Assembly: GCA_963662265.2 (NCBI GenBank)
Contig: CAXXHA010000001.1
Coordinates: forward strand, 64,001 to 128,000
Direction of reading: 5' to 3'
DNA from: Spirochaetia bacterium
GTDB taxonomy: Bacteria; Spirochaetota; Spirochaetia; CADAEX01
Length of the DNA stretch: 64,000 bases
Both the position numbers and the translations under genes were made by a program. Below, piece after piece: positions 5,545 to 60,218 of this stretch; the stretch's first letter is position 1, and the number at the start of each line of letters is the position of its first letter. The notes under the pieces were generated by a model. The model saw nothing but the letters and a program-made list of their open reading frames with translations, did not search any database and had not been told where the DNA came from.

Positions 5545-6489
5545 TCAGCAGACAGCTTTTATCTGCTCGCTTAAAGTACTAACAGCTGTATTTTTCAGAT
5601 ACAGAATATTCTTATTTTCCTTTTTGCATATTTTTTTCATTGATTTACAGGCTGAATGACTGATACAGTCAAGGGCACAGATAACAATATCTGCCTTAAG
5701 AGCTGTAGATGACAGTTTCTTCTTGGAATCTTCAAGACCTCCGTCATGATGAACGAAAAGGCCGTTTCCGGATTCAACAATTTCCCGGCAGTATTCTTTA
5801 AGCTTTTTACGCCCTCCCACCAGCAGTACTGTTTTACTTGAAAGATCAACAGAACTCTTTATAGAATCTATTCTATTTTTATATTCACAGTTATTCTGTT
5901 CAAAACAGCTGCATTCATCGTCATATTCAAATCCTTCAACACTGCAGTTTTCAAACTCAAGCCTGCTTATCTCTTCCTTCAGAATCATTTCATTGATTTC
6001 GTATTCTTCAATTCTGTTTTTAATAGTTTTTAAATCGTATTCATTTTTCCTGATAATGAAATCTTTTTCCTGCAGGTCTTTCTCAAGATGATTGATTTTT
6101 GTTTTGTAATTACAGGCTACTGTTTTATTCTGATCATGCTGTTCTGTCTTTATTAAATTATTTTTCCTATCCGCTCCATTCTTACGCTTCACAAATCTTC
6201 TGCACTGTATGATAAGATCATACCCAAGCATTGCGCCCAGAATAAAATCCTCGGTATCAGAAAGTTTATCAAGCTCAAGTGTTTGGAAATTACGAAGAAC
6301 ATTTATACATTCTCCGGCACCGAAAAATACATTTATTTTCTCAGAAGAAACATCATCAACAATATAACTTATTTCATGTTTTTCAAGCTTATCAATAATT
6401 CTTTCTTTTTCACTTACAGGGCCGGTGTACAAAACAAGTTTTCTCAACCCTTTTTTATATTCATATATGTGATGCACAAAGATCTTCAT
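5545..6489 (-). CDS. DUF2023 - coiled coil - DUF2325 fusion protein
   Basis: N-terminal HHIYEYKKGLRKL...DFILGAMLGYD (DUF2023). C-terminal VLLVGG...HHDGG...ADIVICALDCISH (DUF2325). Confidence 0.75.
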   Translation of the reverse strand: MKIFVHHIYEYKKGLRKLVLYTGPVSEKERIIDKLEKHEISYIVDDVSSEKINVFFGAGECINVLRNFQTLELDKLSDTEDFILGAMLGYDLIIQCRRFVKRKNGADRKNNLIKTEQHDQNKTVACNYKTKINHLEKDLQEKDFIIRKNEYDLKTIKNRIEEYEINEMILKEEISRLEFENCSVEGFEYDDECSCFEQNNCEYKNRIDSIKSSVDLSSKTVLLVGGRKKLKEYCREIVESGNGLFVHHDGGLEDSKKKLSSTALKADIVICALDCISHSACKSMKKICKKENKNILYLKNTAVSTLSEQIKAVC

Positions 6490-7118
6490 CCATTATCTCC
6501 TTACTGCTGATATATCTTCCCAGAACATTAACCATTGATTCAACAACTTCACTGGAGTATTTTATCCCTGCCTCATTTTTTATCATCCTGACTGCTTCAG
6601 CGGGATTTACAGGATCCTTGTAAGTCCTGAAAGTTGTCATGGCATCATAGGTATCAGCAACAGCAATTATCTTAGCCCCGGTGCTGATTTTATCACCACT
6701 CAGTCCGCAGGGATAACCGCTCCCGTCAATCCGTTCATGGTGCTGAACAACTATCTCTGCAATTGATTCAAATCCAGGTATATCTTTCAGAATTTTCCAG
6801 CCTATCCTTGAATGCTCTTTTATAACTTCATACTCACAGTCTTTCAGACTTCCTGTTTTCAGCAAAATACCATCAGGTATTCCAATCTTGCCAATGTCAT
6901 GCAGATGCCCCGCAATGTGAAGACCTTCACAACTGCTTTTTGACAACCCCATATCTCCTGCTATAAGCTCAGACAGAACAGCCACCCGGTCTGAATGACC
7001 AGCTGTATACTGATCCCTCGCCTCAAGAGCATTGGTCAAACTCTCCAGAAAACTGTGAAAAGTTATCCTGTTGATATTGAAATCAGCCACAAACCATATC
7101 CATATTAACTACTGTCAT
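6461..7118 (-). CDS. Stand-alone HD-GYP phosphodiesterase (apparent +1 frameshift near 7092)
   Basis: ARDQYTAGHS, LHDIGKIG and HHERIDGSGYP motifs. The ATG at 7118 has RBS AAGGGAG and joins the frame after removing one T. Confidence 0.9.
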
Positions 7119-43972: not shown

Positions 43973-45075
43973 TTAGCAGTGCATATAGAAATAAAACGGA
44001 TCATGACCTGGTTCCACATCAGACGGATTAAAAAGAAAAAAATCCTCTTCTCTTCTTGTATCAAGTGCAACTATCCTGTTCATTTTATACTTGTTTTCAT
44101 CATTCATAGGAACCATAGTATTCTCATCAATAATATAAAGCCATCTTGAATCACCAGAAGGAAGAAACCTGCTGGGACCGTAAAACTCCTTGTCTGACAT
44201 TTTAGAAGAGCTTATTGTATCTATAGCATTGAAAGAGGCATCAAAACATATAATCCTGTTGTTTTCAAAAGTATAAACAGGATCCCAGCTTCTCTGTTCA
44301 AAAACTGCACCGTATGTTTTACCGTTAAGAACTGTAATATCTTTCCCGCGCTGTTTTCCAGGAAGAAGATAATATTCCGATAATAAATTCTTCGTAAGGC
44401 TTACTTAACAAAAACCTGATGAAGCACCCGGATCGTATTTTTCAAAAGCTAGGTAGAGATTCCCCTCCCCGTCAAGACACATTCCATTGAACTTGCTAGT
44501 CCTATAACCCTGAAGCATACCGATACCAGAGACTACAGAAGCAGGAGATGAAATATCAAGTGATTTCTTAAAGACTTTTCCTCCCTGTCATTGAGCGTAA
44601 AATACAAGATCCCTTCAGCTATATCGATTGTAAAAGCATCAACCCTGTCGCCATCAACAAACATTTTCTTGATAGAATTACCGGTATCAGATACAGAAAA
44701 TAATCCCGAAACATCTTTACCCGCGCTTGAAATATATATTTTCCCTGAATTGTCAATAAATACATCAGACGGCATAAATCTGTGACAAGAAGAAGCATTC
44801 ACATCAGATGATGTAAACTCGCGCCAGAGCAAAGATTCCTTGTTTATAGAATCAACATATATAACTTTACCAGCATCAGAGTCGGGAATAACAAGTGAAT
44901 CAAAAGGATAATTACGGCCGGATCCTGTACTGTTTGATGCAGAAGCATCTGCACTGCATGACAGAAATGTTAATATTGCCAGAGAATATATAATCAAATC
45001 TCTGGCATGTTGTTTCTTAATGATTTTTTTAAAATTACTTCCAATTACAGAAATATCTAAAACATGAAAAACCAT
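43973..45075 (-). pseudogene. Fragmented lipoprotein (beta-propeller-like)
   Basis: Lipobox FLSC, PSDVFIDNSGKIYIS repeat-type motif; broken into 44533-45075, intervening fragments and 43973-44200. Confidence 0.5.
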
Positions 45076-45180
45076 TTATAACTCCTTTTATATTTTGTTT
45101 TCTTTTAAAGAGAACAGTAACACAATAGTTTTTTTCCATTTTAAATACTTTTCTCAAAAGGATTAATTTAATTCACCTTT

Positions 45181-45345
45181 GTATCATTGCAAAATTATAT
45201 CCACGATAATATTCATACCCGGGATTGCGGGGATAACAGATATTTTGCAGGCAGCAACAGAAATAAGACATATAATATTATCTACACATGGATAAAAAAC
45301 AGAAAAATTATTTATTTTCTCAACGGACGATTTATGCAACCGGAC
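45181..45345. mobile_element. MITE copy 1 (~165 bp) with IS-derived ends
   Basis: Ends GTATCATTGCAAAATT and CGGACGATTTATGCAACCGGAC; colinear with 58748-58907. Confidence 0.78.
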
Positions 45346-45526
45346 GGGCAGGATAATCTTACTAACCACAGAATAATCCCACCTTATCAGCGGGAGTATT
45401 ATTCTGATTACAAATCGATTGGAAAAAACGAACCTTCAAATGTTGGAGAACACGTGGGGGTTAGTTCAATACAGCTGGGAGATCAGTGTTAAAGAAGATT
45501 TATTACTAAATTCATTGATAAATCTC

Positions 45527-45551
45527 CACGAACGACTTTTGTAACGGTACG
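45527..45551 (-). repeat. Additional IS-type right end
   Basis: Reverse complement reads CGTACCGTTACAAAAGTCGTTCGTG. Confidence 0.6.
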
Positions 45552-45563
45552 GGGATAAAGTTA

Positions 45564-47297
45564 TTAAACCTTCAGGTTATCAAATGCATTCAACATTTTT
45601 TTCAGAAGATCCGGTTTTTGGTTTATATCAGAATTTAAAATGAATTGTTTCCTCTGATTGAACCGTTCTTTTAAAATACTCAAGTAATCTTCTTTATTAT
45701 TTACATTGTCTACAGAATATAAATGGCTGTAATTTGGTATAATCCTGTCAATCACTTCAGGCTTGGGGACAAGTGCGCCGCCGAGCATATCCCACTCTTC
45801 CCATTCAAGCTCTCCCATTAAAACAGCAGTCTGTAAGCGAAGACTTGATTTCAAAGATATATCTGTTAAATCTGTATCACTGCTCTTCCAGAATCCACCG
45901 GAATTAAAGACATAACACTCGGTCCCTGCATTTACAACATTTAAAAAGCCTTCTACATCTTTATATAATTCATATACCCTGAACGGATTAGCGTATGGTT
46001 CAAATACAAGCCTTTTCATATCTTCAAGTGATACATTCTCCGCTGTACTCCGCTTAGTCATTAATGTTGCTCCCATGGCAATTCCCAGTTCCCTGCTCTC
46101 ACACTTCAGCACAGGAGGCAGGGTAGAATCTTTCATCAGCCAGCAAATGTAATTCGGGTATCCAATTTTGTTTGTATAATTCCCAAGTAAATCTCTGTCA
46201 AGAATAGCTCTACTGTTGCCGTTTCTTATATCCAGAGCTAAAGGAACGACTTTTCCGTTTTTCTCGATTGTTCCATTATTTTGAGTTGATATCACATAGT
46301 TCCAGTCCGGGTGGTCCGGGTCCCTGGAATCCATTTTATCAAACAGGCTGGGTTCCCAGACACGGCAGCACTTGTTCTTTACATCAATTTGAAATGCATC
46401 ATCATGTAAAATTGTCGTTTTTACCCCATCAGGTAATGAACCTTTATTATCCTTGGAATTTGTATGCGAAGATTTACCGCTTCCGGACAAGCCGAAAAAA
46501 CCAATCACCTTTTTACCCAGTTTCTGAGACTCTTTGCTTTTTGTGAAATCAACTTCTTTTATTCCGCCATGGCAGGCAACCTGTCCCAGTCGCATTCCGC
46601 TCGACCAGGCTAAGGTCAATGTCCCTTTTTTCAGTTCGCCGAAATATCTCATCCCCAGATTAAACACGACATTTTCATAAGGATCAAAAATAGCCAGCAT
46701 ATCTCCGAATTCAGGATATTTTGTGTTTTTCCATTCAGGATATGATATAAAAAGTATATCCTGAAGCGGTAATTGTTTACTGTTCTCATATTCATATCTT
46801 AATGAATCAACCCAGGCAAAATTTACAAGCCAGTTAAACATATTAGAGGCATTTGATTGTGTTGTACTGAGGATTGCCCGCAGCATCAGATCTTTATCCA
46901 TACCGAGAATTGCTTCAGTCATAATAATTTTTTTCTGCTTCATCTCATAAACAGCGTCCAGACAAATATTTTCAAGTTTTTTCCTGGTAGCTGCATCCTG
47001 TTTGTTATAAAAGATCCTTGCCTTTGCTGTTCTGCCGACAACCGAACCGTGACAATCATCCAGAACTGTTGCACCGGGGCCCAGCCCCAGTCTTTTCCTG
47101 GCAGGTTCGTAAATTGGTAAATCTGTAACAGAAATATGAGGCAATTGCCTGGCCATTTCATATGCTCTTTCCGGGCTTACCCGCATTTCAATATTACCGC
47201 TGTCATTTCTGGTGGTAACCATGGATATGGCAATTGCCCTGAGGCGAGACATTTTTTTCAAGTCGGCATAATGATAAATTGAAGATCTGGTAGCCAT
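45564..47297 (-). CDS. pckA: PEP carboxykinase (ATP)-family protein
   Basis: YFGELKKGTLT, CHGG, FFGLSGSGKS P-loop, ILHDD, RNGNSR and PYANPFR motifs. Confidence 0.82.
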   Translation of the reverse strand: MATRSSIYHYADLKKMSRLRAIAISMVTTRNDSGNIEMRVSPERAYEMARQLPHISVTDLPIYEPARKRLGLGPGATVLDDCHGSVVGRTAKARIFYNKQDAATRKKLENICLDAVYEMKQKKIIMTEAILGMDKDLMLRAILSTTQSNASNMFNWLVNFAWVDSLRYEYENSKQLPLQDILFISYPEWKNTKYPEFGDMLAIFDPYENVVFNLGMRYFGELKKGTLTLAWSSGMRLGQVACHGGIKEVDFTKSKESQKLGKKVIGFFGLSGSGKSSHTNSKDNKGSLPDGVKTTILHDDAFQIDVKNKCCRVWEPSLFDKMDSRDPDHPDWNYVISTQNNGTIEKNGKVVPLALDIRNGNSRAILDRDLLGNYTNKIGYPNYICWLMKDSTLPPVLKCESRELGIAMGATLMTKRSTAENVSLEDMKRLVFEPYANPFRVYELYKDVEGFLNVVNAGTECYVFNSGGFWKSSDTDLTDISLKSSLRLQTAVLMGELEWEEWDMLGGALVPKPEVIDRIIPNYSHLYSVDNVNNKEDYLSILKERFNQRKQFILNSDINQKPDLLKKMLNAFDNLKV

Positions 47298-47320
47298 TTT
47301 ATACTCCTTTCCAGCCGCAG

Positions 47321-48604
47321 CTATAATTCTTTAGCTGCTTTGAAAATTATACTATAAAGCTCTTCAATTTTTTCAATATCTACTGAAGAAAAAGCAACCC
47401 TTAGATATTTTCCTGCTATGGAAATTGCACCTGTTTTATATTTGTCCAGAAGCAGCTTTCTGAGCTTTTCAGCATCTTTTTCAATTACTTCAAAAGTCAT
47501 GAAGTATCCTGAATTAAAAGGCAGCGCTTTAAGCGGCACATCAGATGGAATTCCTGATATAACATTCTTAACCTTTAAATACCTTTCATTCATTATTTTA
47601 AAAGCTTCATCCTTTTCACTGTGATAAGATCTGCTTTCAAGACCTTTTAGAAGAAGTGTCTGCGATATCTTGCTGCAGCTTGAAATAGAAGCCCTGACAG
47701 CACCCATTGTCTTGCGTTCTACAGCTTCATACTGTTCAGAACTTATATCCTTGCCGCCATATGTTATAAAACCTACCCTGAATCCCCATACAAGCTCTTC
47801 TTTTGTTGCGCCGTCAATCTTTACCGCAAGAATATTTTTATGAGCATCGGCAAGCTTTGAAAAAAGTGACTCATTGTTTGTCTCGTCTTCATAAAACAGT
47901 CCGAAATAGGCATCATCACATACAACCATTATACTGAATTCCTCATCAGCAAGTTTTACGAAAAGTGAAATAATTTCATCAGCTTCCATCTTTGAAGGAG
48001 AATATCCTGTGGGATTATTGGGGAAATTAAGAAAAACAACTGCTTTTTTGTTTTCAACAGAACGCACGGATTCCTCAAGCGCTTTAAGGTTAATTCTGTC
48101 ACCGTCGAAAAACGGAAAGTTGAGAATTTTTCCTCTGCATCTGCCTTCAACTATAAGCCTGTAATTCCCCCAGAACATATCAGGGACAATTACTGCATCA
48201 TCTTTGTCTACAAATAGATCTGCAATAATTGATATACCGTGAGTAAGGCCTGCAGTTACTATCGGATTTGAAACAGACTTCCCTTCAAGTGAGGGATTTT
48301 TAAAGACCATTTCTTTTTTCCACATTTCACGCAGCCTGGGAAGTCCTGTTGTAGGGGCATAACTGTATATTTCTGATGAATCAAGACCTGAAAGATGTTC
48401 ATTTATTGAAGGAAGAAACATCGGCTTACCTTCAACGGTAGCCATACCTACGGTTGCATTGAATTTTTCAGCTTTGCTGCCTGCTTCTGCAGCCTGTGCA
48501 ATAATACCTTTGGGAAAATAAAATCTTTTCCCAAAATCAGACAACAGTTTATATATTGAGCTCCCATCAAGTGTTTTATTAAGTTCCGTAACAAGAGATT
48601 CCAT
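47321..48604 (-). CDS. Class I/II PLP aminotransferase (aspartate aminotransferase-like)
   Basis: NFPNNPTGY, DDAYFG, DGATKE and GFRVGF motifs. Confidence 0.88.
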   Translation of the reverse strand: MESLVTELNKTLDGSSIYKLLSDFGKRFYFPKGIIAQAAEAGSKAEKFNATVGMATVEGKPMFLPSINEHLSGLDSSEIYSYAPTTGLPRLREMWKKEMVFKNPSLEGKSVSNPIVTAGLTHGISIIADLFVDKDDAVIVPDMFWGNYRLIVEGRCRGKILNFPFFDGDRINLKALEESVRSVENKKAVVFLNFPNNPTGYSPSKMEADEIISLFVKLADEEFSIMVVCDDAYFGLFYEDETNNESLFSKLADAHKNILAVKIDGATKEELVWGFRVGFITYGGKDISSEQYEAVERKTMGAVRASISSCSKISQTLLLKGLESRSYHSEKDEAFKIMNERYLKVKNVISGIPSDVPLKALPFNSGYFMTFEVIEKDAEKLRKLLLDKYKTGAISIAGKYLRVAFSSVDIEKIEELYSIIFKAAKEL

Positions 48605-48691
48605 AGTATTCTCCAAATAATTGCTGAAGGCAATACACCTTCGATTGCTATACTGTCTAATTATATTACCTTTTTTTATTTTCAGGTATTT

Positions 48692-50014
48692 TCAGACTGC
48701 ACTTTTATGATAATCCTGCATATTATCCACCAGGACCTGGATAACTTTTTCATATTTATCAAGAGGAACAGCAATCATCATTGTGATTGGAGATCCTCCA
48801 TAATTTATTGCATCAATTATAATATCAGAGGACTTCAATGCAGTAAGTACTTTAGTAGATATACCAGGATCAGTCTTCAAACCTTCACCTACAACACCAA
48901 TAACCGCAACTTCATCGCCAATTGAGAAACCGTCTGCCTGTATCTCATCTACAAGTTTATTGAAAATAAGTTCCCATTCTTGTTCACTTCTTCCATCAGA
49001 AACAACATATAGACTCAATGTATCAAAACCTTTCATTTCAAATTCAGCATCAACACCTTCACTTTTTAATTTCTCAACAATCTGTGCTGATATTTGAGGA
49101 GACTTGTTCATCATGAATTTTTCAACAGTAATTCGTCTATAAGGTTTTTTTCCGGAAACTCCAACAATCAATGCACCCTCTGTCTCCCTGTCTGCAACAA
49201 TATATGTACCTGGTGCAGAAGGATCATTTGTATTCTTGACATTTATCGGAATACCAATTGACTTCACTGGTGCAATTGCCTCTTCATGAAAAACACTTGC
49301 ACCGATAGAAGCCATCTCCCTGATTTCACGATATGTTATCTGTTTTATAGGTTTTGGATTTTCTGCTACGCGCGGATCTGCCATCAGTATACCGGAAACA
49401 TCAGTCCAGTTTTCATAAACATCTGCGTTTACAGCTCTTGCAGCAATTGCACCTGATATATCTGACCCTCCCCTTGAAAAAGTCTTTAACTCGCCTTTCA
49501 AGGTAGCTCCATAAAAACCGGGGAGAACAACTAGTTTTTCACCTTTCATATATTCAGCTAAAAGCTCATATGAACTATCATGAACCCTTCCATCTTCTGT
49601 AAGCCGTATTACATTTTCAGCATCAATAAATTTAGCTCCAAGAGCATCCGCAATCAGCATGGCGCTTAAATACTCGCCGCGGCTGGCTGCATAATCAGGT
49701 GTACAACCGTTTTTAATCCTGATCCCTATCTCATCAATTACCGGCTCAAGATCTGTAGAAATCTGCAGTTCTTTTGCTATTTCCAGATACCTTGATTTAA
49801 TCAGATTAAAAGGAATATCAATAGATTTCCCCTGTTCAGCCAGAGAATGACATTTATAAAGTAAATCAGTAATCTTTTCATCTGATTGATTTCTTTTCCC
49901 AGGAGCTGAAACAATTACAAGACTTCTTGAAGGGTCCTCTTCAAATATTGCCTTTACTTTTCTGATTTGAGCAGAATCTGCAACAGAACTGCCTCCGAAT
50001 TTACATACTTTCAA
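48692..50014 (-). CDS. lysC: Aspartate kinase
   Basis: KFGGSSVA, VSAPGKR, SRGE, FSRGGSD and WTDVSG motifs, plus ACT domains. Confidence 0.93.
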   Translation of the reverse strand: MKVCKFGGSSVADSAQIRKVKAIFEEDPSRSLVIVSAPGKRNQSDEKITDLLYKCHSLAEQGKSIDIPFNLIKSRYLEIAKELQISTDLEPVIDEIGIRIKNGCTPDYAASRGEYLSAMLIADALGAKFIDAENVIRLTEDGRVHDSSYELLAEYMKGEKLVVLPGFYGATLKGELKTFSRGGSDISGAIAARAVNADVYENWTDVSGILMADPRVAENPKPIKQITYREIREMASIGASVFHEEAIAPVKSIGIPINVKNTNDPSAPGTYIVADRETEGALIVGVSGKKPYRRITVEKFMMNKSPQISAQIVEKLKSEGVDAEFEMKGFDTLSLYVVSDGRSEQEWELIFNKLVDEIQADGFSIGDEVAVIGVVGEGLKTDPGISTKVLTALKSSDIIIDAINYGGSPITMMIAVPLDKYEKVIQVLVDNMQDYHKSAV

Positions 50015-50239
50015 TTCACAAAACTCCTATTCTTCATCAGTAAATTGCAGATCTTCTTTATTACAAGGAACTGCTGTTTCGTAAGCTTTAACTGCATTTT
50101 TATAATCGCAGCTGATTTCTACAGCTTCAATTCCAGATATTGCTTCTCTCAGCCTGAATACAGTTTTCCTTAGATAACATGCAAGAAGATCTGCTTATCA
50201 ATTTTGTTTGAAATTTATTTATTTTTATCCCGCCGGGTA

Positions 50240-51262
50240 TTAAACAAGATTTCTTTCTATAAGGGTTTCAGCCACCTGAACTGCATTCAGAGCAGCTCCC
50301 TTACGGATGTTATTGGAAACAACCCACAGACTTAAACCATTATCAATGGTATAATCTTCTCTCACACGGCCTACCATTGTGAGATCTTCATCATTACTCA
50401 TAAGCGGCATTGGATAAACATCATTATCAACATCATCAATCAGCTTTATACTTTCGCCGTTCTTTAGCAGCTCCATAGCTTTTTCCCTGCTGATCTTTTT
50501 TTCTGTTTCAATATTTACAGATTCAGAATGACCATACCAGACAGGAACTCTTACACAGGTTGCATTAACATTAATTTTTTCATCAAGGATTTTTTTTGTT
50601 TCATTGACCATCTTGTATTCTTCCTTGGTGTATCCGCCTTCCTGAAACACATCTATATGAGGAAGACAATTAAAAGCAATCTGGGATTTATATGCTTTTG
50701 GTTCTTTTAATTCTCCAGTGTTGATATATTCCTCAGCTTCAGCTTTTAAGCCGTCAAAAGCTTTCTTACCTGAACCTGATACTGCCTGGTAAGTAGATAC
50801 AACCACCCTCTTAACTCCTGCATAATCATGAAGCGGTTTAAGAGCAACCATCATCTGAATAGTAGAGCAGTTGGGATTTGCAATAATACCTTTGTTCCAG
50901 TCCAGGTCCTCAGGATTAACTTCAGGAACAACAAGTGGACATTCAGGATCCATTCTCCACTGTGAGCTGTTATCTACTACTATAGCTCCCTGCTTTACTG
51001 CTTCAGGTGCAAGAGCTTTACTGGCATCTCCTCCGGCAGAAAAAATTGCCACATCTATGTCTTTGAAATTTTCAGATTTGGCTTCCAGGACTTTCCAGCT
51101 TTTTCCGTTAAAAATTACTTCTTTGCCTTCATTCTCTGCTATATCAAGCGGCCTGAATTCAGCAACAGGATAGTTTCTTTTTTCAAGAGTCTTTATCATT
51201 TCTGTTCCCACAAGCCCCATTGCGCCGACAACAGCTACATTATATTTATTTTTTTTACCCAT
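50240..51262 (-). CDS. asd: Aspartate-semialdehyde dehydrogenase
   Basis: GAMGLVG, DNSS, ANPNCST, STYQAVSGSG, CVRVPV and RKGAALNAVQ motifs. Confidence 0.96.
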   Translation of the reverse strand: MGKKNKYNVAVVGAMGLVGTEMIKTLEKRNYPVAEFRPLDIAENEGKEVIFNGKSWKVLEAKSENFKDIDVAIFSAGGDASKALAPEAVKQGAIVVDNSSQWRMDPECPLVVPEVNPEDLDWNKGIIANPNCSTIQMMVALKPLHDYAGVKRVVVSTYQAVSGSGKKAFDGLKAEAEEYINTGELKEPKAYKSQIAFNCLPHIDVFQEGGYTKEEYKMVNETKKILDEKINVNATCVRVPVWYGHSESVNIETEKKISREKAMELLKNGESIKLIDDVDNDVYPMPLMSNDEDLTMVGRVREDYTIDNGLSLWVVSNNIRKGAALNAVQVAETLIERNLV

Positions 51263-51386
51263 TTTTTTCTCCATATATATAAGCGTGAAATACAGGGATG
51301 CCCTTTACATACAAAAATTTCAGATTGGATTTGTCGATTAATTTTACATACATATCAGAACCTGTATCTCACGCTGTTTATTTTAT

Positions 51387-52769
51387 TTATGCGAGTTTAC
51401 CCGCTTCAATTTCTCTGATTACATCAGAAAGTATTTCAATTCCCTTCATAAGGTACTCTTCTGTAATTACCAGAGGAGGAAGAAGCCTTGCTACATTTCC
51501 GTGATGGCCTCCAACTTCGATCATGACTCCCCTCTGATGGCCGTACTTTCTAACCATCTTGGCATAATCGGCAGCCGGTTCCCTGGTCTCTGAATCCTTA
51601 ACCAATTCTATTGCTATCATGAGTCCGATTCCGCGAACTTCACCAACAATGGAACTCTCTTTTTCCAGTTCTTTGAGAGGAACCATTGCCTTAGCTCCAA
51701 GCTCAAGGGCTCTTTCCGGAATTTTATTCTCAGACATCCAGTTCAGAGCAGCCGCTCCTGCAGCATAAGCAACCATATTACCCCTGAATGTTCCAATAGT
51801 TTTGCCGGCAGGCCAGCTGTTGAGTTTTTCCCTGTATGCAATTGCAGAAATAGGAAATCCTATACCGCCAAGCGCCTTGCTCATAGTAATGATGTCAGGA
51901 ACAATATCAAAATGTTCAAAAGCAAACATCTTTCCGGTTCTGCCAAGGCCAGCCTGGATCTCATCACAAATCATCAATACATCATGCTTGTAGCAAATTT
52001 CCCTGACACGTTTCATAAACCGTGTTGTAGGAATTATTGTTCCGCCTTCACCCTGTACCGACTCCATAATTACTGCCGCAGGTTTTAAATAACCTGAATG
52101 GCTGTCTGATAAGACACGGTCAAGGTTTTCTGCTGCCTGCAAATCAACATCATCATCAGGACAGCCGAACGGATTACGGTATTTATACGGGTAAGGAAGG
52201 AACTGAACTCCAGGGACAAGCTGTCCGAGTCCTGTACGATGGTGAGCATCACATGTCATGGCAAGAGAAATTCCTGTCATACCGTGATAAGCACCTTCAA
52301 AAGCAATAATTCCGTCACGTCCTGTATTCCATCGGGCAAGCTTAATTGCCTGCTCAACTGCATCAGAGCCTGTCGGTCCTCCAAAAAAGACACGGCTTAA
52401 TTCTTTTGGAAGAAGTTTTCCAAGTGTTTCTACCATTTTTTGTCTGGTAGGTGTCGGAATATCAAGTGCATGAGTTACATCATCTATCTGCTCATGTGCT
52501 GCTTTTAGTACTTCCGGATGGCTGTGGCCTACTGCCATAACTCCTGCGCCGCTGAACATATCGATATAGATATTTCCATCCATATCCTCGATAGTTGCAC
52601 CCCGCCCCTTCTTTAAAGCCATAGGCATACCTTTTGAATAACTAACTGCTGAACTTTCATGCTCATTCTGAAAAGAAAGAATCTTCTGTGATTCCAGTCC
52701 CGGAGGGGTCACCTTGATCTTTGGTGCTCCTTCAAATGAAAGTTTTTCTAATTCCTGTTCACTGATCAT
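51387..52769 (-). CDS. Class III aminotransferase, diaminobutyrate/GABA transaminase-like
   Basis: GPTGSDAVE, AYHGMT, ESVQGEGG, DEIQAGLGRTG, SKALGG and GTFRGN motifs; GPTG and GTFRGN are typical of Dat/EctB-like enzymes. Confidence 0.88.
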   Translation of the reverse strand: MISEQELEKLSFEGAPKIKVTPPGLESQKILSFQNEHESSAVSYSKGMPMALKKGRGATIEDMDGNIYIDMFSGAGVMAVGHSHPEVLKAAHEQIDDVTHALDIPTPTRQKMVETLGKLLPKELSRVFFGGPTGSDAVEQAIKLARWNTGRDGIIAFEGAYHGMTGISLAMTCDAHHRTGLGQLVPGVQFLPYPYKYRNPFGCPDDDVDLQAAENLDRVLSDSHSGYLKPAAVIMESVQGEGGTIIPTTRFMKRVREICYKHDVLMICDEIQAGLGRTGKMFAFEHFDIVPDIITMSKALGGIGFPISAIAYREKLNSWPAGKTIGTFRGNMVAYAAGAAALNWMSENKIPERALELGAKAMVPLKELEKESSIVGEVRGIGLMIAIELVKDSETREPAADYAKMVRKYGHQRGVMIEVGGHHGNVARLLPPLVITEEYLMKGIEILSDVIREIEAGKLA

Positions 52770-53154
52770 TTTGATACCTCTTTAAAAGTTGTTTATAACC
52801 TATCTCTCAGCGGTAGAACCCTTCGAGTTGTTTTTCTTTTATTATTACTTGTCACCTGATATCGATAGTCACGTCCTGAAGTTCAAAAAAGGAAATGACT
52901 CGTATTTCAGAAAAAGCGTTCCGGTAGAGAAAAGGCACGCTTTTCTTTGGGTTTTAAATATTAAAAACTTTTTTAACTGTTATTATTTCCTTAAATTACC
53001 TGGATCGTTCTCTCTTAACCCCCGGCAGTAAATCAAAACCCGCCGGTCCCAATAGATAACCAATATTTTTATTATTCAGATTTAAAATTAAATCCGCTTC
53101 TCTAATCCTTCTCTCTTATTAGAATTTCTGTTCTAACACTTTCATACACCTATA

Positions 53155-53171
53155 TGCATATTACGTGCCAA
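53155..53171 (-). promoter_or_regulatory. Sigma54 promoter for the class III aminotransferase
   Basis: TTGGCACG-TAATA-TGCA with correct -24/-12 spacing. Confidence 0.8.
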
Positions 53172-53296
53172 GACGTTAAATAAGTGTTTTTTGTTATAAT
53201 TACCACAAAAAAATGCTGAAAATGAAATGTTTGGAGTAATTTTCATACAGTTCAGTATTAGAAATCAGAAATATTTGTGAATATTTCGCCTTTAAG

Positions 53297-53437
53297 TGCA
53301 AAATTTTCGGCATCTCTGCCGATTATTTTGCAACATACTCTGTAATTCAGCTTATTTGGACTGGTGGGAGTGCAAAAATATAGGTTATATGCATTCGGAT
53401 ATAAATATTACATAAAATAAGTGCAAAATATTTTGCA
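53297..53437. promoter_or_regulatory. RocR-like enhancer boxes
   Basis: TGCAAAATTTTCGGCA, TGCCGATTATTTTGCA and perfect TGCAAAATATTTTGCA. Confidence 0.72.
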
Positions 53438-53976
53438 GGCATTATCATATTGTGCATATATATGCGCTGATGACCAAAGAAGATTATCAGAATATTCTGC
53501 AAATCATATCAGCCCTTATCCATTCTTCTGTTTTTCAACATACCAACCGGTTAATCCTGATCTTACATATTCTTATCCTGTTTATACCTGTGCCGCCTGA
53601 AAGATTCTTCCATCAGGTCCTGATATAGGGCAGAGAGAACAGCTTGTAGAACATCTTCCATGGAAGGGAGGAACATTGCGTACAATTCCAGATAGAAAAC
53701 AACTTCTTTAAGAGGTTGAGATGACAGGAAGTAATGGATATTTATTTGAAATAAAAGAATGGAATAATGTAATTATCATTCTAAAAATGGATATTAATTT
53801 TCTTCCGGAGAAAAAGCTCATTGAATAAGACAATGAGCTCCTTTTATCTCCGTTTTAATCTATCCTTGTATGTGAAAGAATAAATATGTTTCTCACATGC
53901 AAAATTTTCGTGTATCATTTCATTTAAATCACACAGCTTTTATTTTACAGGTCTGCAGTCTTTCCTGATTATCTAT

Positions 53977-55147
53977 TTATTTTTTTAAATAATTAATAGC
54001 AGTGCGGACATGAAGCTCTGCCCCAACAGGAAGTACATCTTCATCAATATCAAATTTTGGATGATGGTGAGGATAATCTGAACCTATTGCCGGATTATTG
54101 ATCCCTACAAAGGAGAAGGCCCCGGGTGTTGTCTTAAGATAGTCGCTGAAGTCTTCACCAGCCATAGTCCTTATTCTTGAAGTTATTTTGGAAGGGTCAC
54201 AGAGTGTCTCTTTTGCGGCAGAACGAACCACAGCTGCAGCTTCAGGATTATTGGACAGAAGATGATTTCCCACTTTGAACTCAAGCTTGTAACTAACCCG
54301 ATGAGCCTGGCATATGTTTGAAATTATTCTTTCGAAGCTCTCAAAGATTTTCTCTCCCCCCTCGTAAAGGAAACGTATGGATCCCTTTATCTTAACTTTT
54401 TCCGGGACTATCGTCATATTGCTTCCGGCGTGAAATTCTGTAAACATTATGACAGAGGGATTCAGCGCATCTGTTTCCCTGGTCTGGATAGCCTGTACTG
54501 CCTGGATGATTTGAGTTGCAGGATAGATAGGGTCGATGGATTCATGGGCAAAGCCTGCATGACCGCCTTTACCCTGTATAGTGAGGTAGAAGTAGTGGCT
54601 TGCCGCCATCTGAGGGCCGTCAACAATATCAACTGTACCGGATGGGATCTGTGACCAGAGGTGGACTCCGAAAGCAGCATCTACACCGGGGTTTTCCATT
54701 ATACCCTCTTCAATCATTTTATAGGCGCCTGCATCCTCTTCGTTCGGCTGGAATGCGAATTTAATATTACCTTCAATTTCATCCCGCATCCCGGCAAGGA
54801 CTTTTGCAGCTGCCATAAGCATTGCAAGATGACCGTCATGTCCGCAGGCATGCATTATTCCCTTTTCTTTCGAGGCAAAGGAAAGTCCTGTCTCTTCCTC
54901 TACAGGAATAGCAATCCATATCTGAACGAAGAAGAACTGTTTTGCCCGGCTTACTCCCTGACAGGAGAGCAACAACACCAGTCCCTGCAATCTTTTTTAC
55001 ATCATCAAGCCCGCAGGCTTTTAAATATTCAATTACTTTTTCCTGGGTTCTGTATTCCTGAAATCCCAGCTCAGGATTTTGGTGGAAGTCTCTTCTAAGC
55101 TCAACCAGCTCCTGTTTCAGAGTCTCTATCTTTTTTTTTATGTCCAT
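53977..55147 (-). CDS. M20D amidohydrolase, apparent +1 frameshift near 54914
   Basis: RRDFHQNPELGFQE, LRSDMD|AIP, MHACGHDGH, FQPNEE, GGHA, GEDFS and HHHPKF motifs split over two ORFs. Confidence 0.9.
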
Positions 55148-55168
55148 ATGTTTCTCCAATAAAAAAGA

Positions 55169-55190
55169 GGAGCAGGAGTACTCCTGCTCC
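55169..55190 (-). terminator. Perfect intergenic palindrome with T tail
   Basis: GGAGCAGGAGTACTCCTGCTCC followed by TCTTTTTT on the minus strand, between symporter and amidohydrolase. Confidence 0.55.
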
Positions 55191-55214
55191 CTTAAAAAAG
55201 TAATTACGCAGTTT

Positions 55215-56576
55215 CTATTCTTTGACCCCTACTGTGCTAGTAAAAAATTCTTTTGTTAATTCTACAACTTTTTTCCTCATTCCTATAAGGAGGATAAGGT
55301 TAATCGCAACAGTTATACCCATAAACAGGTCAAGAAGGCCCCAGATAATTCGAAGTCCGCCTACAGCTCCGATAACAACAGCTATAAGAAATACAATTCT
55401 TACAGGCATAATCGCTTTATTACCAAAGCAGTACACTGCTCCAGTTTCGCTGTAATATTCTGCTACTAAAATTGTTGTGTAGGCAAAAAACAGAATTGAA
55501 ATTGTAACAATCAAATCTCCAGGTCCAGGTAAGCCTGTCTGAAAAGCTGTAGCTGTAAGACTTGCTCCAACCTCACCGCTTGGAATAACGCCTGTTATAA
55601 CGATAACAAGACCAGTCATTGTACAAACAATTATTGTGTCTACAAAGACTTCAAATATGCCCCAGATACCCTGTCTGACAGGATGATCGACTGTCGCTGT
55701 TGCATGCGCAACAGGTGAAGTTCCCATTCCTGCTTCGTTAGAGTATACACCTCTGGCAAAACCATTTCGAATAACTACCATTAGAGTTGAACCTGCAAAG
55801 CCTCCGGCCGGAGCCATACCTGTAAAGGCTGATTTTACAATAGTTGCAAGTGCAGCAGGTATTGCTGTAACATTTGCAAGTATAATAAATAAAGCTGCCA
55901 ATGTATAAATTACTGCCATGATAGGAACCATTTTCTCTGCAACCTTCCCAATTCTTTTGATACCGCCGAGAATAACAAGTCCGGAGAGTACAGCTATAAT
56001 AATACCTACAACAAGATGATTTCCTCCAAAAGAGTGGTTGATAACATCTGAGATTGAGTTGGACTGAACTGCTCCGCTGATGAGAAACTGTAGAAAGAAG
56101 AGAAGACTCCAGATAAAAGCCAGCCATCGCCAGTTTTCACCCAAACCTTTCTTTACAATGTACATAAATCCGCCCCGGTATATACCAGTTTCCGGATCTT
56201 TTTCACGGTAATGCATACCCAGAACAATTTCTGCATATTTGGCAATTGCTGCAAGAAGAGCAACTACCCACATCCAGAAAAGCGCTCCGGCGCCGCCGAT
56301 TGCTACTGCAACTCCAACTCCTGCGATATTTCCAGTTCCCAGAGTTCCTGCCAATGCAGAAGCTGCTGCCTGAAACGGAGTTAAGTTTCCTTCGCCGATT
56401 ACTTCCTTGTTAAACATTTTCCCGAAAGTGTTTTTCATTATAAATCCGAACTTTCTGAACTGGAAAAATCTCAGCAGTAACGAATAAATAATCGCAGTTA
56501 CGGTAATAATACCGATAAGTGGCCATCCCCAGAGAAATCCGACAATAATGCCCACAAAATTCATAAATGTATCCAT
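55215..56576 (-). CDS. Alanine/glycine:cation symporter (AGCS) family amino-acid carrier
   Basis: LGTGNIAGV, GGAGALFWMW, RGVYSNEAGMG and FVDTIIVCTMT motifs. Confidence 0.94.
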   Translation of the reverse strand: MDTFMNFVGIIVGFLWGWPLIGIITVTAIIYSLLLRFFQFRKFGFIMKNTFGKMFNKEVIGEGNLTPFQAAASALAGTLGTGNIAGVGVAVAIGGAGALFWMWVVALLAAIAKYAEIVLGMHYREKDPETGIYRGGFMYIVKKGLGENWRWLAFIWSLLFFLQFLISGAVQSNSISDVINHSFGGNHLVVGIIIAVLSGLVILGGIKRIGKVAEKMVPIMAVIYTLAALFIILANVTAIPAALATIVKSAFTGMAPAGGFAGSTLMVVIRNGFARGVYSNEAGMGTSPVAHATATVDHPVRQGIWGIFEVFVDTIIVCTMTGLVIVITGVIPSGEVGASLTATAFQTGLPGPGDLIVTISILFFAYTTILVAEYYSETGAVYCFGNKAIMPVRIVFLIAVVIGAVGGLRIIWGLLDLFMGITVAINLILLIGMRKKVVELTKEFFTSTVGVKE

Positions 56577-56898
56577 AGATACCTCCCCCTAAAAGAATTT
56601 ATATTTTAAAAAATGGCAAAACATAGAAAATTTCCGCTTAGTTTTTTCATACATCGATCTTTAACGCAAATAAAGTTCTCTGAAGTCATCAAGCTTATTT
56701 AATAGCTCTTACCTTCAAAAAGCAAATGCTTCTTTAAAAAGACCATAAATAGCTATTTTAAAGAAAAAGCCTTTAAGAGTATCTGCTTGACAATAAATTT
56801 CACTTAGGTTATATGAAAAAACTGCAGAATGAATCCCTGATATATTCCTTTTCGAATCAATAAAACAAGGCCTACCGGCTCACGTATATAACTAATAA

Positions 56899-57328
56899 TT
56901 TTATTATTCAGATTTAAACTCTGTTTCTCTAATCCTTCTCTGTTGTCAGTATTTTTGTTCAAGCACCTTAAAAGACCCCATACATATTCCGTGCCAAGTC
57001 ATTAAATAGGTGATTTATATTGTTATTACCACAAAAAAATGCTGAATATGAAATGTTTGGAGTAATTTTTATACAGTTAAGTATTAGAAATCAGAAATAT
57101 TTGTGAATATTTCGCCTTTAAGTGCAAAATATTCGGCAAAAATGCCGAATATTTTGCAACGAACTCTGTAATTCAGCTTATTTGGACTGGTGAGAGTGCA
57201 AAAATAAAGGTTATATACATTTGGAAATATATATTACAGGAAAAAAAGTGCAAAATATTTTGCAGGCATCGTCTTGTTATGTTATTATATAAACTTATGA
57301 CTAAAGAAGATTATCAGAATATTATGCA
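56899..57328. repeat. Duplicated regulatory block, copy B (sigma54 promoter 56981-56997; enhancer boxes 57123-57158 and 57249-57264)
   Basis: TTGGCACG-GAATA-TGTA on the minus strand; TGCAAAATATTTTGCA-type palindromes. Confidence 0.88.
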
Positions 57329-58695
57329 CACCCTCTCCGAAAACGTAAGCGAAGGTATCTACATTGTCAGCTCAGACGGCATGAGCCTCTTATACAACAA
57401 AAGCATGTCGAAGCTCGAAGAAATGAAACCGGAGGATGTTATTGGAAAAAATCTTAATGAAGTGCAGTCAAATATTCCGGATGGAGAAAGCACTCTCATC
57501 AGAGCATTGAAATTTAAAAACAAGACCAATAACTGCAATCAAACATATATCAACCATTACGGCAAAGAAATTACTACCATAAATACCACCATACCTGTCC
57601 TTAATAAAGAGAATGAAGTAATTGCTGCCATAGAAATAGCTTAGAGATGTTACAGATATCAAGAAGATGTCTGATACTATTATTGATTTGCAGAATGAAA
57701 ACATTAATTCAAAGAAAATTGGCAAGAGAATAAAAACCTATACATTTAAGGATTTTGTGTGTCATGATGATGTTTTTCAGAAAGTTCTTACAAGATCAAA
57801 AAAAGCAGCAAAGGTGAATGCCTCTGTTCTTATTTACGGAGAAACCGGGACCGGTAAAGAATTAATTGCACACAGTATTCACAATGAAAGCATCAGACGA
57901 AACAAACCGTTTATAGCTCAAAATTGCGCAGCACTTCCCGATAGCCTGTTAGAAGGTATACTCTTTGGAACAGCAAAGGGAAGCTTCACAGGAGCGGTTG
58001 ATCGCGCAGGAATATTCGAGCAGGCCAACGGCGGCACCCTGCTGCTTGATGAAATCAATTCCCTGCCTGTTGATCTTCAAAGTAAACTCCTGCGCGTACT
58101 GCAGGAAAATTATCTACGGAGAGTCGGTGGCTCAAAAGATATCCCGGTCGATGTAAGAATCATTGCAACAATTAATGAAACCCCTAAAGATTTAATTGAC
58201 GGTGGAAAGCTTAGACAGGATTTATATTACAGGTTGAAGATTATCGAGATAAACCTCCCGCCTCTTCGAAGCAGAAAAAAGGATATTCTGCCGCTGGTTG
58301 AATATTTTATCAGTAAATACAACAAAGAATTCGGAAAAAATGTAATGGGCATAACGGAAAAAGCAAAAGAAATGCTTATCAATTATGATTATCCAGGAAA
58401 CATAAGAGAACTGGAGCATATGTTCATGTCCATTGTTTCCATGAGTGAAGATGCAATTTATGTTGATGAAAAACACCTTAACCTGTCTGCCCGTTCTAAA
58501 CCAGATATTCAGAGATATCATATTAATGAGGTAGAAAATCAGAGCCTCGACACATATCTGGAAAATATTGAAAAGGCTCTTATCTCAGAAGCCTTCGAAG
58601 CTGCCGGCCAATCGGTTACAAAAACAGCAGCTTATCTGAAAATAAAGCGACAGACTTTACAGTATAAGTTAAAGAAATACGGCATTAGAACTTAA
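57297..58695 (+). CDS. RocR-like PAS + sigma54 AAA+ + Fis-HTH activator, apparent +1 frameshift near 57641
   Basis: PAS domain, GETGTGKE, QNCAALP, GSFTGA, LLDEI, DLYYRL, YPGNIREL and RQTLQYKLKKY motifs; EIA|RDVT restored by removing one T. Confidence 0.9.
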
Positions 58696-58747
58696 AGACC
58701 AGAGCGGTATCAGGATTCTATTGAAACAGGTTTAAAAAACGTATCCC

Positions 58748-58907
58748 GGACCGTTGCAAAATTGTCCGAGACTATATTCATGCCTGGAGGTTGTGGGAAT
58801 AACAAATATTTTTGCAGGCAGAAACAGAAATACGCCATATAATCTACACATAAATAAAAAATAGAAAAATTATTTCTTTTCTCCAAGGACAACTTATGCA
58901 ACCAGAC
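58748..58907. mobile_element. MITE copy 2
   Basis: GGACCGTTGCAAAATTGTCCG...GGACAACTTATGCAACCAGAC; the interior matches 45181-45345. Confidence 0.78.
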
Positions 58908-59165
58908 GAACCTGAGACTGATCTGAATCTGGAAGAATTATACAAAAATCAAGATCACTATCTTTGATAGGAGGAGGCCCCAGACAGAAGAACCATATAA
59001 AAAGATCTATTTGGGATGATATAAATCTATAGAAAAAATATTTATTGATGTAATTATACATTGATACGATGTCTTGTATTGAGACTACCTATATAAATAA
59101 TAAATTATAATTTCTCTTTTTCGTTCTTTACTTTTTTAGAAAAATGCATTTATATAATTTTACTT

Positions 59166-59233
59166 AGGGATCAGATGGTTTTATTTAAATAAAATTAATC
59201 GGGCATTAGCAGCGAGTATTTCGTGGGACCCCT
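59166..59233 (+). ncRNA. NiCo (czcD) riboswitch candidate
   Basis: AGG-GATCAG...P2...GGGC-P3-GCAGC-P4-GTGGGAC-CCCT matches the NiCo four-way-junction pattern. Starts just after a TATAAT and precedes a CDF gene. Confidence 0.7.
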
Positions 59234-59262
59234 CGAATAATTATTCAAAGGAGACCCAATAA

Positions 59263-59703
59263 ATGCGGAATACGAATTCATCAACCAATTCTAAAGAACG
59301 TTTAAAGCAAGCAAACAAAACAACCGGTATCGGAGCAATATTTAATATCGTTTTGAGTCTAACCAAGATTATTACCGGTATATTACTAAGTTTATTTATT
59401 ATCAAAGAAGCATTTCATATTGGAAAAATCAGTATAAATGAACTTTTAGAAATCGCATTACCTAGAGAGATCCAGAACCAAATTCTGCAGGTAGCATCTT
59501 CAACACAAGGTGTTTACAACCCCCACAATTTAAAAACAAGACGAATTGGTAATATATCTGCAGTAGATCTACATATTTTAATAGACTCAAATACTACTGT
59601 TGAGAATGGCCATAATATAGCACATAAGGTCGAATCGGCTGTAAAAGAAGAATTAGGTGATGATATGATATGAGATTTTCTATCCACATAGAGCCAAATC
59701 ATA
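59263..59703 (+). pseudogene. CDF (FieF/CzcD-like) cation exporter with internal deletion
   Basis: TM1 is fused directly to TM6 and the cytosolic dimer domain (HNLKTRRIG, VDLHI, GHNIA); the terminal IHIEP is out of frame. Confidence 0.78.
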
Positions 59704-60218
59704 GTAAAATATAAATAATCATTATGACAATTACAGATACTATTTTTTAGTGTGTATCTTACAATAATCAGTTGTCGTCTTGTTGCGATATTACATCTGC
59801 GAATAATATTCACACTTGGGGGACCTGGGGGTATGCCAAGCCCAATATTAGGGACTTTGCTATTTGGTGGAGTCCTTTTTTATTGATTGTCAGCCTGTTT
59901 GAAATCAGTTTATTCCAGTTTCAGTTTTTATGATAAAGAGAATACAATCTCTCTAATGTATTGTTTTAAAAAAGTTCCAGATCTAATAATAAAAGAATTG
60001 AAAACCAGTCAAATTTCACTCCATGTATCATACTTGAACTATTAAAAAGAAAACCTGTACTTCTATTATTTTTAAACAAACCAAAAGGGACATATATAAA
60101 AAAAATCTCTCCAAGTAAGAATTATTTTTTCTCTGCCAGAGCTGAACCTTTTATACTATTACAGTTTAAAATATGGTGCTATTATTCGAAGGTCATAAAT
60201 CAGCAAGGAAGTGAAGCA

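Follow-up and report, generated by a model that had tools for sequence, protein, structure and literature searches.

A spirochaete locus with extra asd and aspartokinase genes: the probable lower half of a sigma-54-controlled ectoine/diaminobutyrate catabolic pathway

The breakdown of ectoine and hydroxyectoine through the described Doe/Eut pathway involves a TRAP importer, the hydrolase DoeA/EutD, the EutABC proteins, a deacetylase step and a class-III transaminase that converts diaminobutyrate (DABA) into aspartate semialdehyde, with aspartate as the end product. In those parts of a 2018 review that treat the pathway (PMC5924519), the aldehyde dehydrogenase DoeC/Ssd oxidises the aspartate semialdehyde made by DoeD, giving aspartate, and the 539 predicted ectoine consumers are all Proteobacteria. 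The locus considered here occupies positions 45564-58695 of a 64,000-nucleotide stretch, referred to throughout as the window, from a Spirochaetia bacterium (assembly GCA_963662265.2, contig CAXXHA010000001.1). It contains genes for a DoeD-like transaminase, for Asd (aspartate-semialdehyde dehydrogenase) and for an aspartokinase behind a sigma-54-type promoter. With a probability of about 65%, the locus represents the lower half of an anaerobe-type ectoine/DABA catabolic pathway under sigma-54 control, in which Asd and aspartokinase would run backwards. The direction of the enzymes, the conservation of ATP, the inducer and the imported substrate are all read from genomic context.

The putative spirochaete pathway shares the importer, DoeA/EutD, EutABC, the deacetylase step, the transaminase and the end product with the Doe/Eut pathway, but departs from it in several respects. 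Whereas the published descriptions of the latter, as far as they go, end with the NAD-dependent DoeC/Ssd and name EnuR, AsnC and NtrYX as regulators, asd and aspartokinase genes are found here in place of that last step, and the regulators are of the IclR type (on contig C37 of the same genome and in the related genome G371) or a sigma-54 activator (in the window). The deacetylase is an M20 enzyme that scores below the NCBIfam DoeB2 cut-off, the host belongs to an anaerobic lineage of spirochaetes, and the pathway appears split over two loci. Ask_Ect, in the review passages describing it, is likewise a dedicated aspartokinase paralogue tied to ectoine metabolism, but it feeds synthesis, whereas the clade of the window aspartokinase sits in catabolic arrays and is proposed to work in the ATP-forming direction.

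Regulation and chemistry each have a described counterpart. RocR and SigL control arginine-ornithine catabolism in Bacillus subtilis, and that system shares with the window an activator of about 460-470 amino acids with a PAS-AAA+-HTH architecture, upstream palindromes, -24/-12 promoters and catabolic operons with a class-III aminotransferase among their genes; it differs in its target genes and in the presumed effector. Of the NCBIfam models, PrdR fits the window activator best, but the score of 313 bits (cut-off 795) does not show orthology. Glyceraldehyde-3-phosphate dehydrogenase and phosphoglycerate kinase convert an aldehyde and phosphate into an acyl phosphate and then pass the phosphoryl group to ADP; this is an analogy of mechanism only, the enzyme families and the substrate being others. 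A full-text literature search, with most subscription journals and supplements outside its scope, returned no report of asd or aspartokinase in ectoine or DABA catabolism and none of an ATP-forming reverse aspartokinase, and a paper on the sigma-54 regulons of Clostridiales (PMC6615313) makes no mention of aspartate, aminotransferase, RocR, alanine symporter or semialdehyde. What is new here is the split architecture, the apparent rewiring to sigma-54 by way of a promoter-enhancer block present in two copies, and the addition of a symporter and an amidohydrolase.

The window genes and their ectoine-linked relatives

Genes in the window were called as open reading frames (ORFs) and then assigned by Pfam and NCBIfam profile searches. 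The ORF listing gives seven genes on the minus strand and one divergent gene on the plus strand, as follows.

55215-56576, minus strand: AGCS-family Na+/small-amino-acid (Na:alanine-type) symporter (PF01235, 408 bits)
53977-55159, minus strand: M20 amidohydrolase (TIGR01891)
51387-52769, minus strand: class-III aminotransferase of the DoeD-position type, predicted DABA:2-oxoglutarate transaminase (TIGR00709 'dat', 398.5 bits against a cut-off of 401.6)
50240-51274, minus strand: extra asd, aspartate-semialdehyde dehydrogenase (TIGR01296, 445 bits against a cut-off of 324)
48692-50014, minus strand: extra aspartate kinase of the ectoine-cluster clade (NF006540, 441 bits against a cut-off of 434)
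47321-48616, minus strand: class-I/II aminotransferase of the PRK08637 family (NF006388, 563 bits against a cut-off of 301)
45564-47297, minus strand: divergent protein of the PEPCK_ATP family (Pfam, 41.6 bits against 26.5; NCBIfam, 92 against 369)
57279-58695, plus strand: sigma-54 enhancer-binding activator (PAS; Sigma54_activat, PF00158, 211 bits; HTH_8, 39 bits)

The profile searches thus confirm the order from symporter through amidohydrolase, transaminase, asd, aspartokinase and aminotransferase to the phosphoenolpyruvate carboxykinase (PEPCK)-like gene that an initial annotation had proposed from the letters of the DNA, and the divergent activator, which it had described as RocR-like, holds up in its PAS-AAA+-HTH architecture. 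Two of the genes, for the M20 amidohydrolase and for the activator, are split by 1-nt frameshifts in the window assembly. Logan contigs from four runs of two studies (X1, X2, X4 and X5), aligned to window positions 44000-60000, lack one letter at each of 53980, 54913 and 57641 in X1, X2 and X4, and at 53980 and 54913 in X5, position 57641 being outside the X5 coverage. Because every covering read-derived contig from the two studies is without the extra base, the frameshifts are assembly errors, and decay of the two genes to pseudogenes is ruled out on the same grounds. Once the spurious letters are removed, the M20 ORF reads through at 394 amino acids and the activator ORF at 471, and the contigs of the second study carry the same gene order. 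Other apparent frameshifts in this genome may be similar artefacts.

The asd and aspartokinase genes are both present in more than one copy in this genome, a further asd being found on contig C24 (446.7 bits), next to pieces of an aspartokinase, and two more aspartokinases on contigs C28 and C14. The window asd is 58% identical to the other genomic asd and retains the catalytic Cys136 and His249, and the window aspartokinase is 28-31% identical to its genomic paralogues; its closest solved structure is 3tvi (380 bits). In the close relative G401, whose PEPCK-like protein is 91% identical to that of the window, the only aspartokinases are 30-31% identical to the window enzyme, and across 401 Spirochaetota genomes the best match outside its own genome reaches 48%. 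These copy numbers do not bear out the reservation, raised with the initial annotation, that asd and lysC might be housekeeping neighbours, and the view that they are something else is supported by the comparisons.

Genome G371 belongs to the same class, is 99% complete and holds a single tight same-strand array. Its order is IclR, transaminase (74% identical to the window gene), asd (74%), M20, DctP, DctQ, DctM, EutA, DoeA, EutB, EutC, a second DoeA and finally aspartokinase (48%), and this single-array arrangement probably represents the ancestral form. In all, 109 aspartokinase loci were examined, 29 from Spirochaetota with 1.5-kb flanks and 80 from metagenomes with 10-kb flanks, the latter drawn from a scan with the window aspartokinase as query. 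The aspartokinase gene directly follows the second DoeA in eight of the 109 loci (L045, which is that of G371, L074-L078, L086 and L143), and genome G141 adds one more locus, with a DoeA ending about 1 kb before the aspartokinase. Three metagenome loci reach far enough upstream to include the 3' end of an asd immediately before the M20 gene, and these ends are 95%, 70% and 69% identical to the window asd, against 43% for the housekeeping asd over the same residues; for L075, L086, L143 and L077 the stretch covered stops short of the array end where the transaminase and the regulator would lie. No aldehyde dehydrogenase follows the aspartokinase in the arrays, the next genes being unrelated ones. 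The eight full-length ectoine-linked aspartokinases and that of the window form an exclusive clade with a Shimodaira-Hasegawa (SH)-like support of 97 in a FastTree phylogeny of 104 rows, from which rows with fewer than 380 aligned residues or an internal stop had been dropped. The pairing of transaminase with asd and the terminal position of the aspartokinase, for which synteny in other anaerobes had been suggested as a check, thus recur in independent ectoine catabolic arrays. A DoeA/EutD-type gene is present in 4 of the 401 Spirochaetota genomes.

The second locus of this genome, on contig C37, came to light in a tblastn search of the genome with the cluster proteins as queries, after which the contig was annotated. 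It holds a canonical cluster for the use of ectoine and hydroxyectoine. Its genes run in the order IclR, transaminase, M20, a DctPQM TRAP transporter, PRK07475 (EutA-like), DoeA/EutD, EutB, EutC and a second DoeA/EutD. The two DoeA/EutD copies score 454 and 449 bits against a TIGR02993 cut-off of 613, and the window has no such gene. Its transaminase is 97% identical to that of the window at the amino acid level, and the nucleotide homology between the two loci (94.7% over 1627 nt) reaches 64 nt into the window asd and 21 nt into the C37 M20 ORF. Because the homology continues into the window asd but stops within the C37 M20 ORF, asd was deleted at C37. Just past the C37 array lies a 122-nt remnant of the 3' end of an aspartokinase gene. 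On this comparison the C37 locus is a derivative cluster, from which asd and almost the entire aspartokinase gene have gone.

Each of the two loci carries a fragment reminiscent of the other. A piece of an IclR-type gene lies in the spacer at 53550-53617 of the window, and a piece of an AGCS gene lies upstream of the C37 ectoine cluster (L038, G000:C37, 19830-19912). These cross-fragments point to past recombination between the window locus and the C37 locus.

The position of the window transaminase and its 97% paralogy with the C37 gene argue for a DoeD identity. The window M20 protein is 46% identical to the M20 enzyme in the DoeB position of C37; against NF038260 (DoeB2, cut-off 550) the C-terminal part of the window protein scores 233 bits and the C37 protein 301 bits, and both pass the generic amidohydrolase model TIGR01891. 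The class-I aminotransferase has an 83% identical paralogue in a generic context on contig C29, its closest solved relative is an Asp/Tyr/Phe aminotransferase (329 bits), and it could convert aspartate to oxaloacetate.

Partners that would be expected of the described pathways were sought in the 3.77-Mb assembly, which is 90.6% complete. A DoeC-type aldehyde dehydrogenase was not found in this genome, where PF00171 (Aldedh) gives two 56-bit matches only. As the initial annotation had stated of ectA, ectC and ddc, searches of the window and of the genome yielded neither an ectA over its cut-off nor a group-II (ddc-type) decarboxylase; nor was ectC found, a weak negative, as the search control was positive in no control genome. 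The simplest reading is that asd and aspartokinase would take the place of DoeC. The earlier proposal of an ATP-conserving alternative to DoeC is now strongly backed by comparison, including the lack of DoeC in both arrays and genome, and its remaining parts, the direction of Asd and aspartokinase and the gain of ATP, continue to depend on genomic context.

The sigma-54-type control region

A block of about 480 nt is duplicated in the window (53026-53510 and 56858-57337, 77-89% identity), and each copy carries two palindromic sites, taken as upstream activating sequences (UAS), 130-270 nt upstream of a -24/-12 site. The elements of this region are the following.

56858-57337: control block copy 1, with UAS palindromes at 57123-57158 and 57249-57264, a -24/-12 site and the 5' end of the activator gene
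53026-53510: control block copy 2, with UAS at 53297-53332 and 53422-53437, a -24/-12 site and an activator remnant (the first ~20 codons)
56982-56996, minus strand: sigma-54-type promoter P1, TGGCACGGAATATGT, with TGT and not TGC at -12, ~400 nt upstream of the symporter gene
53156-53170, minus strand: sigma-54-type promoter P2, TGGCACGTAATATGC, an exact match to TGGCAC-N6-TGC, ~385 nt upstream of the transaminase gene
55168-55191, minus strand: terminator-like hairpin of 10 pairs followed by a T run, in the gap that separates the symporter gene from that of the amidohydrolase

The two sigma-54 promoters of the initial annotation are thus retained, P2 as an exact match and P1 with one mismatch, both lying inside the duplicated block. 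In a search of the whole 3.77-Mb assembly the exact 16-nt palindrome is confined to the two control blocks. The translated activator displays a GSFTGA loop of the GAFTGA type, and an rpoN gene is present on contig C10 (TIGR02395, 393.6 bits, above cut-off). Because the palindromes are unique and shared, rpoN is present and the activator has this loop, it is most likely that one activator drives both P1 and P2.

The leaders between the promoters and their first genes (52770-53150 and 56577-56977) are unusually long, at about 385-400 nt, with the first ~125 nt conserved from one copy to the other; that of P2 contains a small hairpin and a T run, a possible attenuator. At the Rfam gathering threshold the sole match is a tRNA elsewhere, and a comparison of both long leaders with Rfam gave no family, the nearest being a chance-level Chlorobi-1 match at E 0.061. 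The genome as a whole (G000) encodes a dozen or more paralogous sigma-54 activators. It also has ~20 strict -24/-12 matches, some of them immediately next to activator genes, and sigma-54 regulons appear to be heavily used in this spirochaete.

Proposed pathway and competing explanations

The scheme proposed for this free-living spirochaete is a small sigma-54 regulon, in which the activator would bind the palindromes that are duplicated before P1 and P2. From P1, the symporter and, past the hairpin, probably also the M20 gene would be expressed, allowing import and deacylation of a DABA-type compound, whilst P2 would drive the transaminase, asd, aspartokinase and class-I aminotransferase genes, with probable read-through into the PEPCK-like gene. 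The transaminase would convert DABA and 2-oxoglutarate into aspartate semialdehyde and glutamate. Asd, working backwards, would then form aspartyl phosphate and NADPH from aspartate semialdehyde, Pi and NADP+, and aspartokinase, also working backwards, would transfer the phosphoryl group to ADP to release aspartate and ATP, giving one ATP per molecule. Both enzymes catalyse reversible reactions, and at equilibrium that of aspartokinase favours aspartate and ATP. Finally, the class-I aminotransferase would convert aspartate into oxaloacetate. The upper half would be encoded on C37, by the TRAP importer, two DoeA/EutD hydrolases, EutA, EutB and EutC, the M20 deacetylase and the second transaminase copy, and because C37 no longer has asd and retains a mere stub of its aspartokinase, that cluster would depend on the window genes.

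A broader interpretation is put forward more tentatively, at somewhat less than even odds. Aspartokinase and Asd may constitute an undescribed substrate-level phosphorylation module of ectoine/DABA-fermenting anaerobes, a lineage dedicated to the backward reaction. In this genome the module would have been cut out of the ectoine operon and rewired, through the duplicated promoter-enhancer block, to a PAS sigma-54 activator that senses DABA or a close derivative, such that ectoine, handled by C37, and free or acylated DABA, handled by the symporter and the M20 enzyme, would feed into a single trunk that yields ATP. In saline habitats ectoines rank with the most abundant organic osmolytes, and if the interpretation is correct, ectoine/DABA turnover would extend to anoxic sediments and fermenting spirochaetes. 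It would also provide the first catabolic, ATP-forming role for two textbook biosynthetic enzymes, and asd and lysC paralogues beside doeA/eut genes should then not be annotated as genes of the lysine pathway. The window would further show a natural re-plumbing of a pathway, in which a lower half was moved, a promoter-enhancer cassette was duplicated and two operons were placed under one activator.

A number of observations weigh against the proposed pathway or parts of it. The transaminase misses the TIGR00709 cut-off by 3 bits, its closest solved relatives in a search of the PDB are gamma-aminobutyrate (GABA) transaminases (274 bits, against 246 bits for EctB), and specificity for DABA or GABA is not separable from its sequence. 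On the regulatory side, the loose -24/-12 pattern occurs at chance level (8 matches against 8.3 expected), so that the support for P1 and P2 comes from the duplicated block and the unique palindromes and not from the loose pattern alone; P1 has TGT at -12, and the strong hairpin at 55168-55191 parts the symporter gene from the amidohydrolase gene. A symporter orthologue at E<=1e-120 is absent from the other 400 of the 401 Spirochaetota genomes, and neither the symporter nor the window M20 gene nor the activator was found with conserved partners or context elsewhere. Identity between the window aspartokinase and the remnant at C37 is no more than 65%, which leaves relocation of the gene indistinguishable from its replacement by transfer; a simple relocation is thus not proven. 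Aldehyde dehydrogenases of 281 and 541 bits occur elsewhere in G371 and G141. Finally, the asd of the ectoine array in G371 (L155, G371:C24:54001-74000, positions 6099-7118) is the sole asd_B-type gene found in that 99% complete genome, and it may serve biosynthesis as well. This single asd raises the question of where biosynthetic aspartate semialdehyde comes from in G371.

That last point, together with the fact that asd and aspartokinase both pass the NCBIfam equivalog cut-offs for biosynthetic enzymes, is also what could be said for the two being ordinary housekeeping genes that stand here by chance. Such a coincidence is very improbable, given the further asd and aspartokinase genes in this genome, the lack of a window-type aspartokinase in G401, an aspartokinase clade exclusive to ectoine arrays, and the position of the window genes behind a sigma-54 promoter. 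A biosynthetic role of another kind would take the module from aspartate to DABA, as a building block for an osmolyte, polyamine, siderophore or cell-wall component, in the manner of Ask_Ect. Ectoine producers form their DABA with these three enzyme families, ask_ect genes occur in ect clusters (as described in part of the review literature) and the EctB model gives the transaminase 335 bits. Synthesis of DABA is nevertheless unlikely, as the genome searches did not find ectC, ectA or a ddc-type decarboxylase, the genes appear to be co-regulated with an importer and an amidohydrolase, the aspartokinase clade is embedded in arrays with DoeA, EutBC and TRAP importers, and the transaminase is a near-identical copy of a gene in a catabolic cluster.

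Catabolism of a different compound is about as doubtful. The transaminase might act on another omega-amine, such as GABA, ornithine or beta-alanine, brought in by the AGCS carrier, with asd and aspartokinase as passengers of a rearrangement that play no part in the pathway. Its kinship with GABA transaminases would fit, as would the visible rearrangement of the locus, with its repeats, gene remnants and truncated cation-diffusion-facilitator gene, and RocR-type activators govern ornithine and arginine catabolism in Bacillus. However, the products from GABA and ornithine (succinate or glutamate semialdehyde) are not substrates of Asd, independent arrays likewise pair the transaminase with asd and end in the aspartokinase, and the four P2 genes are intact, on one strand and behind one promoter. 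There is also the prospect, rated no higher, that the chemistry is as proposed and that the aspartyl phosphate is hydrolysed or otherwise used, so that carbon and nitrogen would be salvaged without conservation of energy. ATP formation at this locus is predicted from context, and G371 and G141 have a different aldehyde dehydrogenase elsewhere; the retention of a dedicated aspartokinase at the ends of the arrays would, however, be hard to explain if the phosphoryl group were lost. The backward, ATP-forming route through Asd and aspartokinase remains the preferred reading of the locus.

The PEPCK-like gene and the rearranged surroundings

The PEPCK-like gene begins 23 nt after the aminotransferase gene, and transcription is likely to read through from one into the other, because this gap contains no predicted terminator; the gap between asd and aspartokinase is 225 nt. 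The initial annotation had extended the pathway by a PEPCK step from oxaloacetate to phosphoenolpyruvate. This extension finds no support, since the homologues of the gene at all eight of the eight other loci examined have unrelated neighbours, for which reason the PEPCK-like gene is best seen as a recent neighbour and not as a conserved member of the pathway. Gene order around it differs in G401, and a simple insertion of the cluster beside the PEPCK-like gene relative to G401 was considered and set aside, the order being rearranged such that no clean boundary can be claimed. The nearest named record to the host, L010, is a Spirochaetia metagenome-assembled genome (MAG) and encodes a PEPCK-like protein of 91% identity.

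Nine homologues share, without variation, a GLSGSGKSS P-loop together with HDD and YFGELKKG-like motifs, which we take to be PEPCK motifs. The gene is the sole PF01293 match in the genome, in which a canonical ATP-PEPCK was not found. The protein has no phmmer match in the PDB and meets PEPCK-named clusters at 0.99 in the ESM Atlas; an AlphaFold (AF2) model built from a 9-sequence alignment was too poor to use (predicted local distance difference test, pLDDT, 53.8). A partial second PEPCK-like gene, 65% identical to the window copy in amino acids, lies at a contig end (G000:C23:44494-44955). Related proteins of ~580-620 amino acids and 46-50% identity occur in distant anaerobic phyla, on Desulfarculales, Latescibacterota and unclassified MAG contigs (L012-L017), with a cofactor-independent phosphoglycerate mutase as neighbour in L014 and L016 and a LOG-family gene in L014-L017.

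The segment from the PEPCK-like gene to the activator is flanked by two copies of a repeat, 80% identical and in direct orientation.

45187-45346, plus strand: ~160-nt repeat, copy 1
58754-58908, plus strand: ~160-nt repeat, copy 2

A third copy lies ~20 kb further on (G000:C1:142795-142921), and the repeat may be a small intergenic element that mediated rearrangement. Beyond copy 2, at 59263-59673 of the window, lies a truncated cation-diffusion-facilitator gene of which only the C-terminal ZT_dimer part is present, and which looks like a rearrangement scar.

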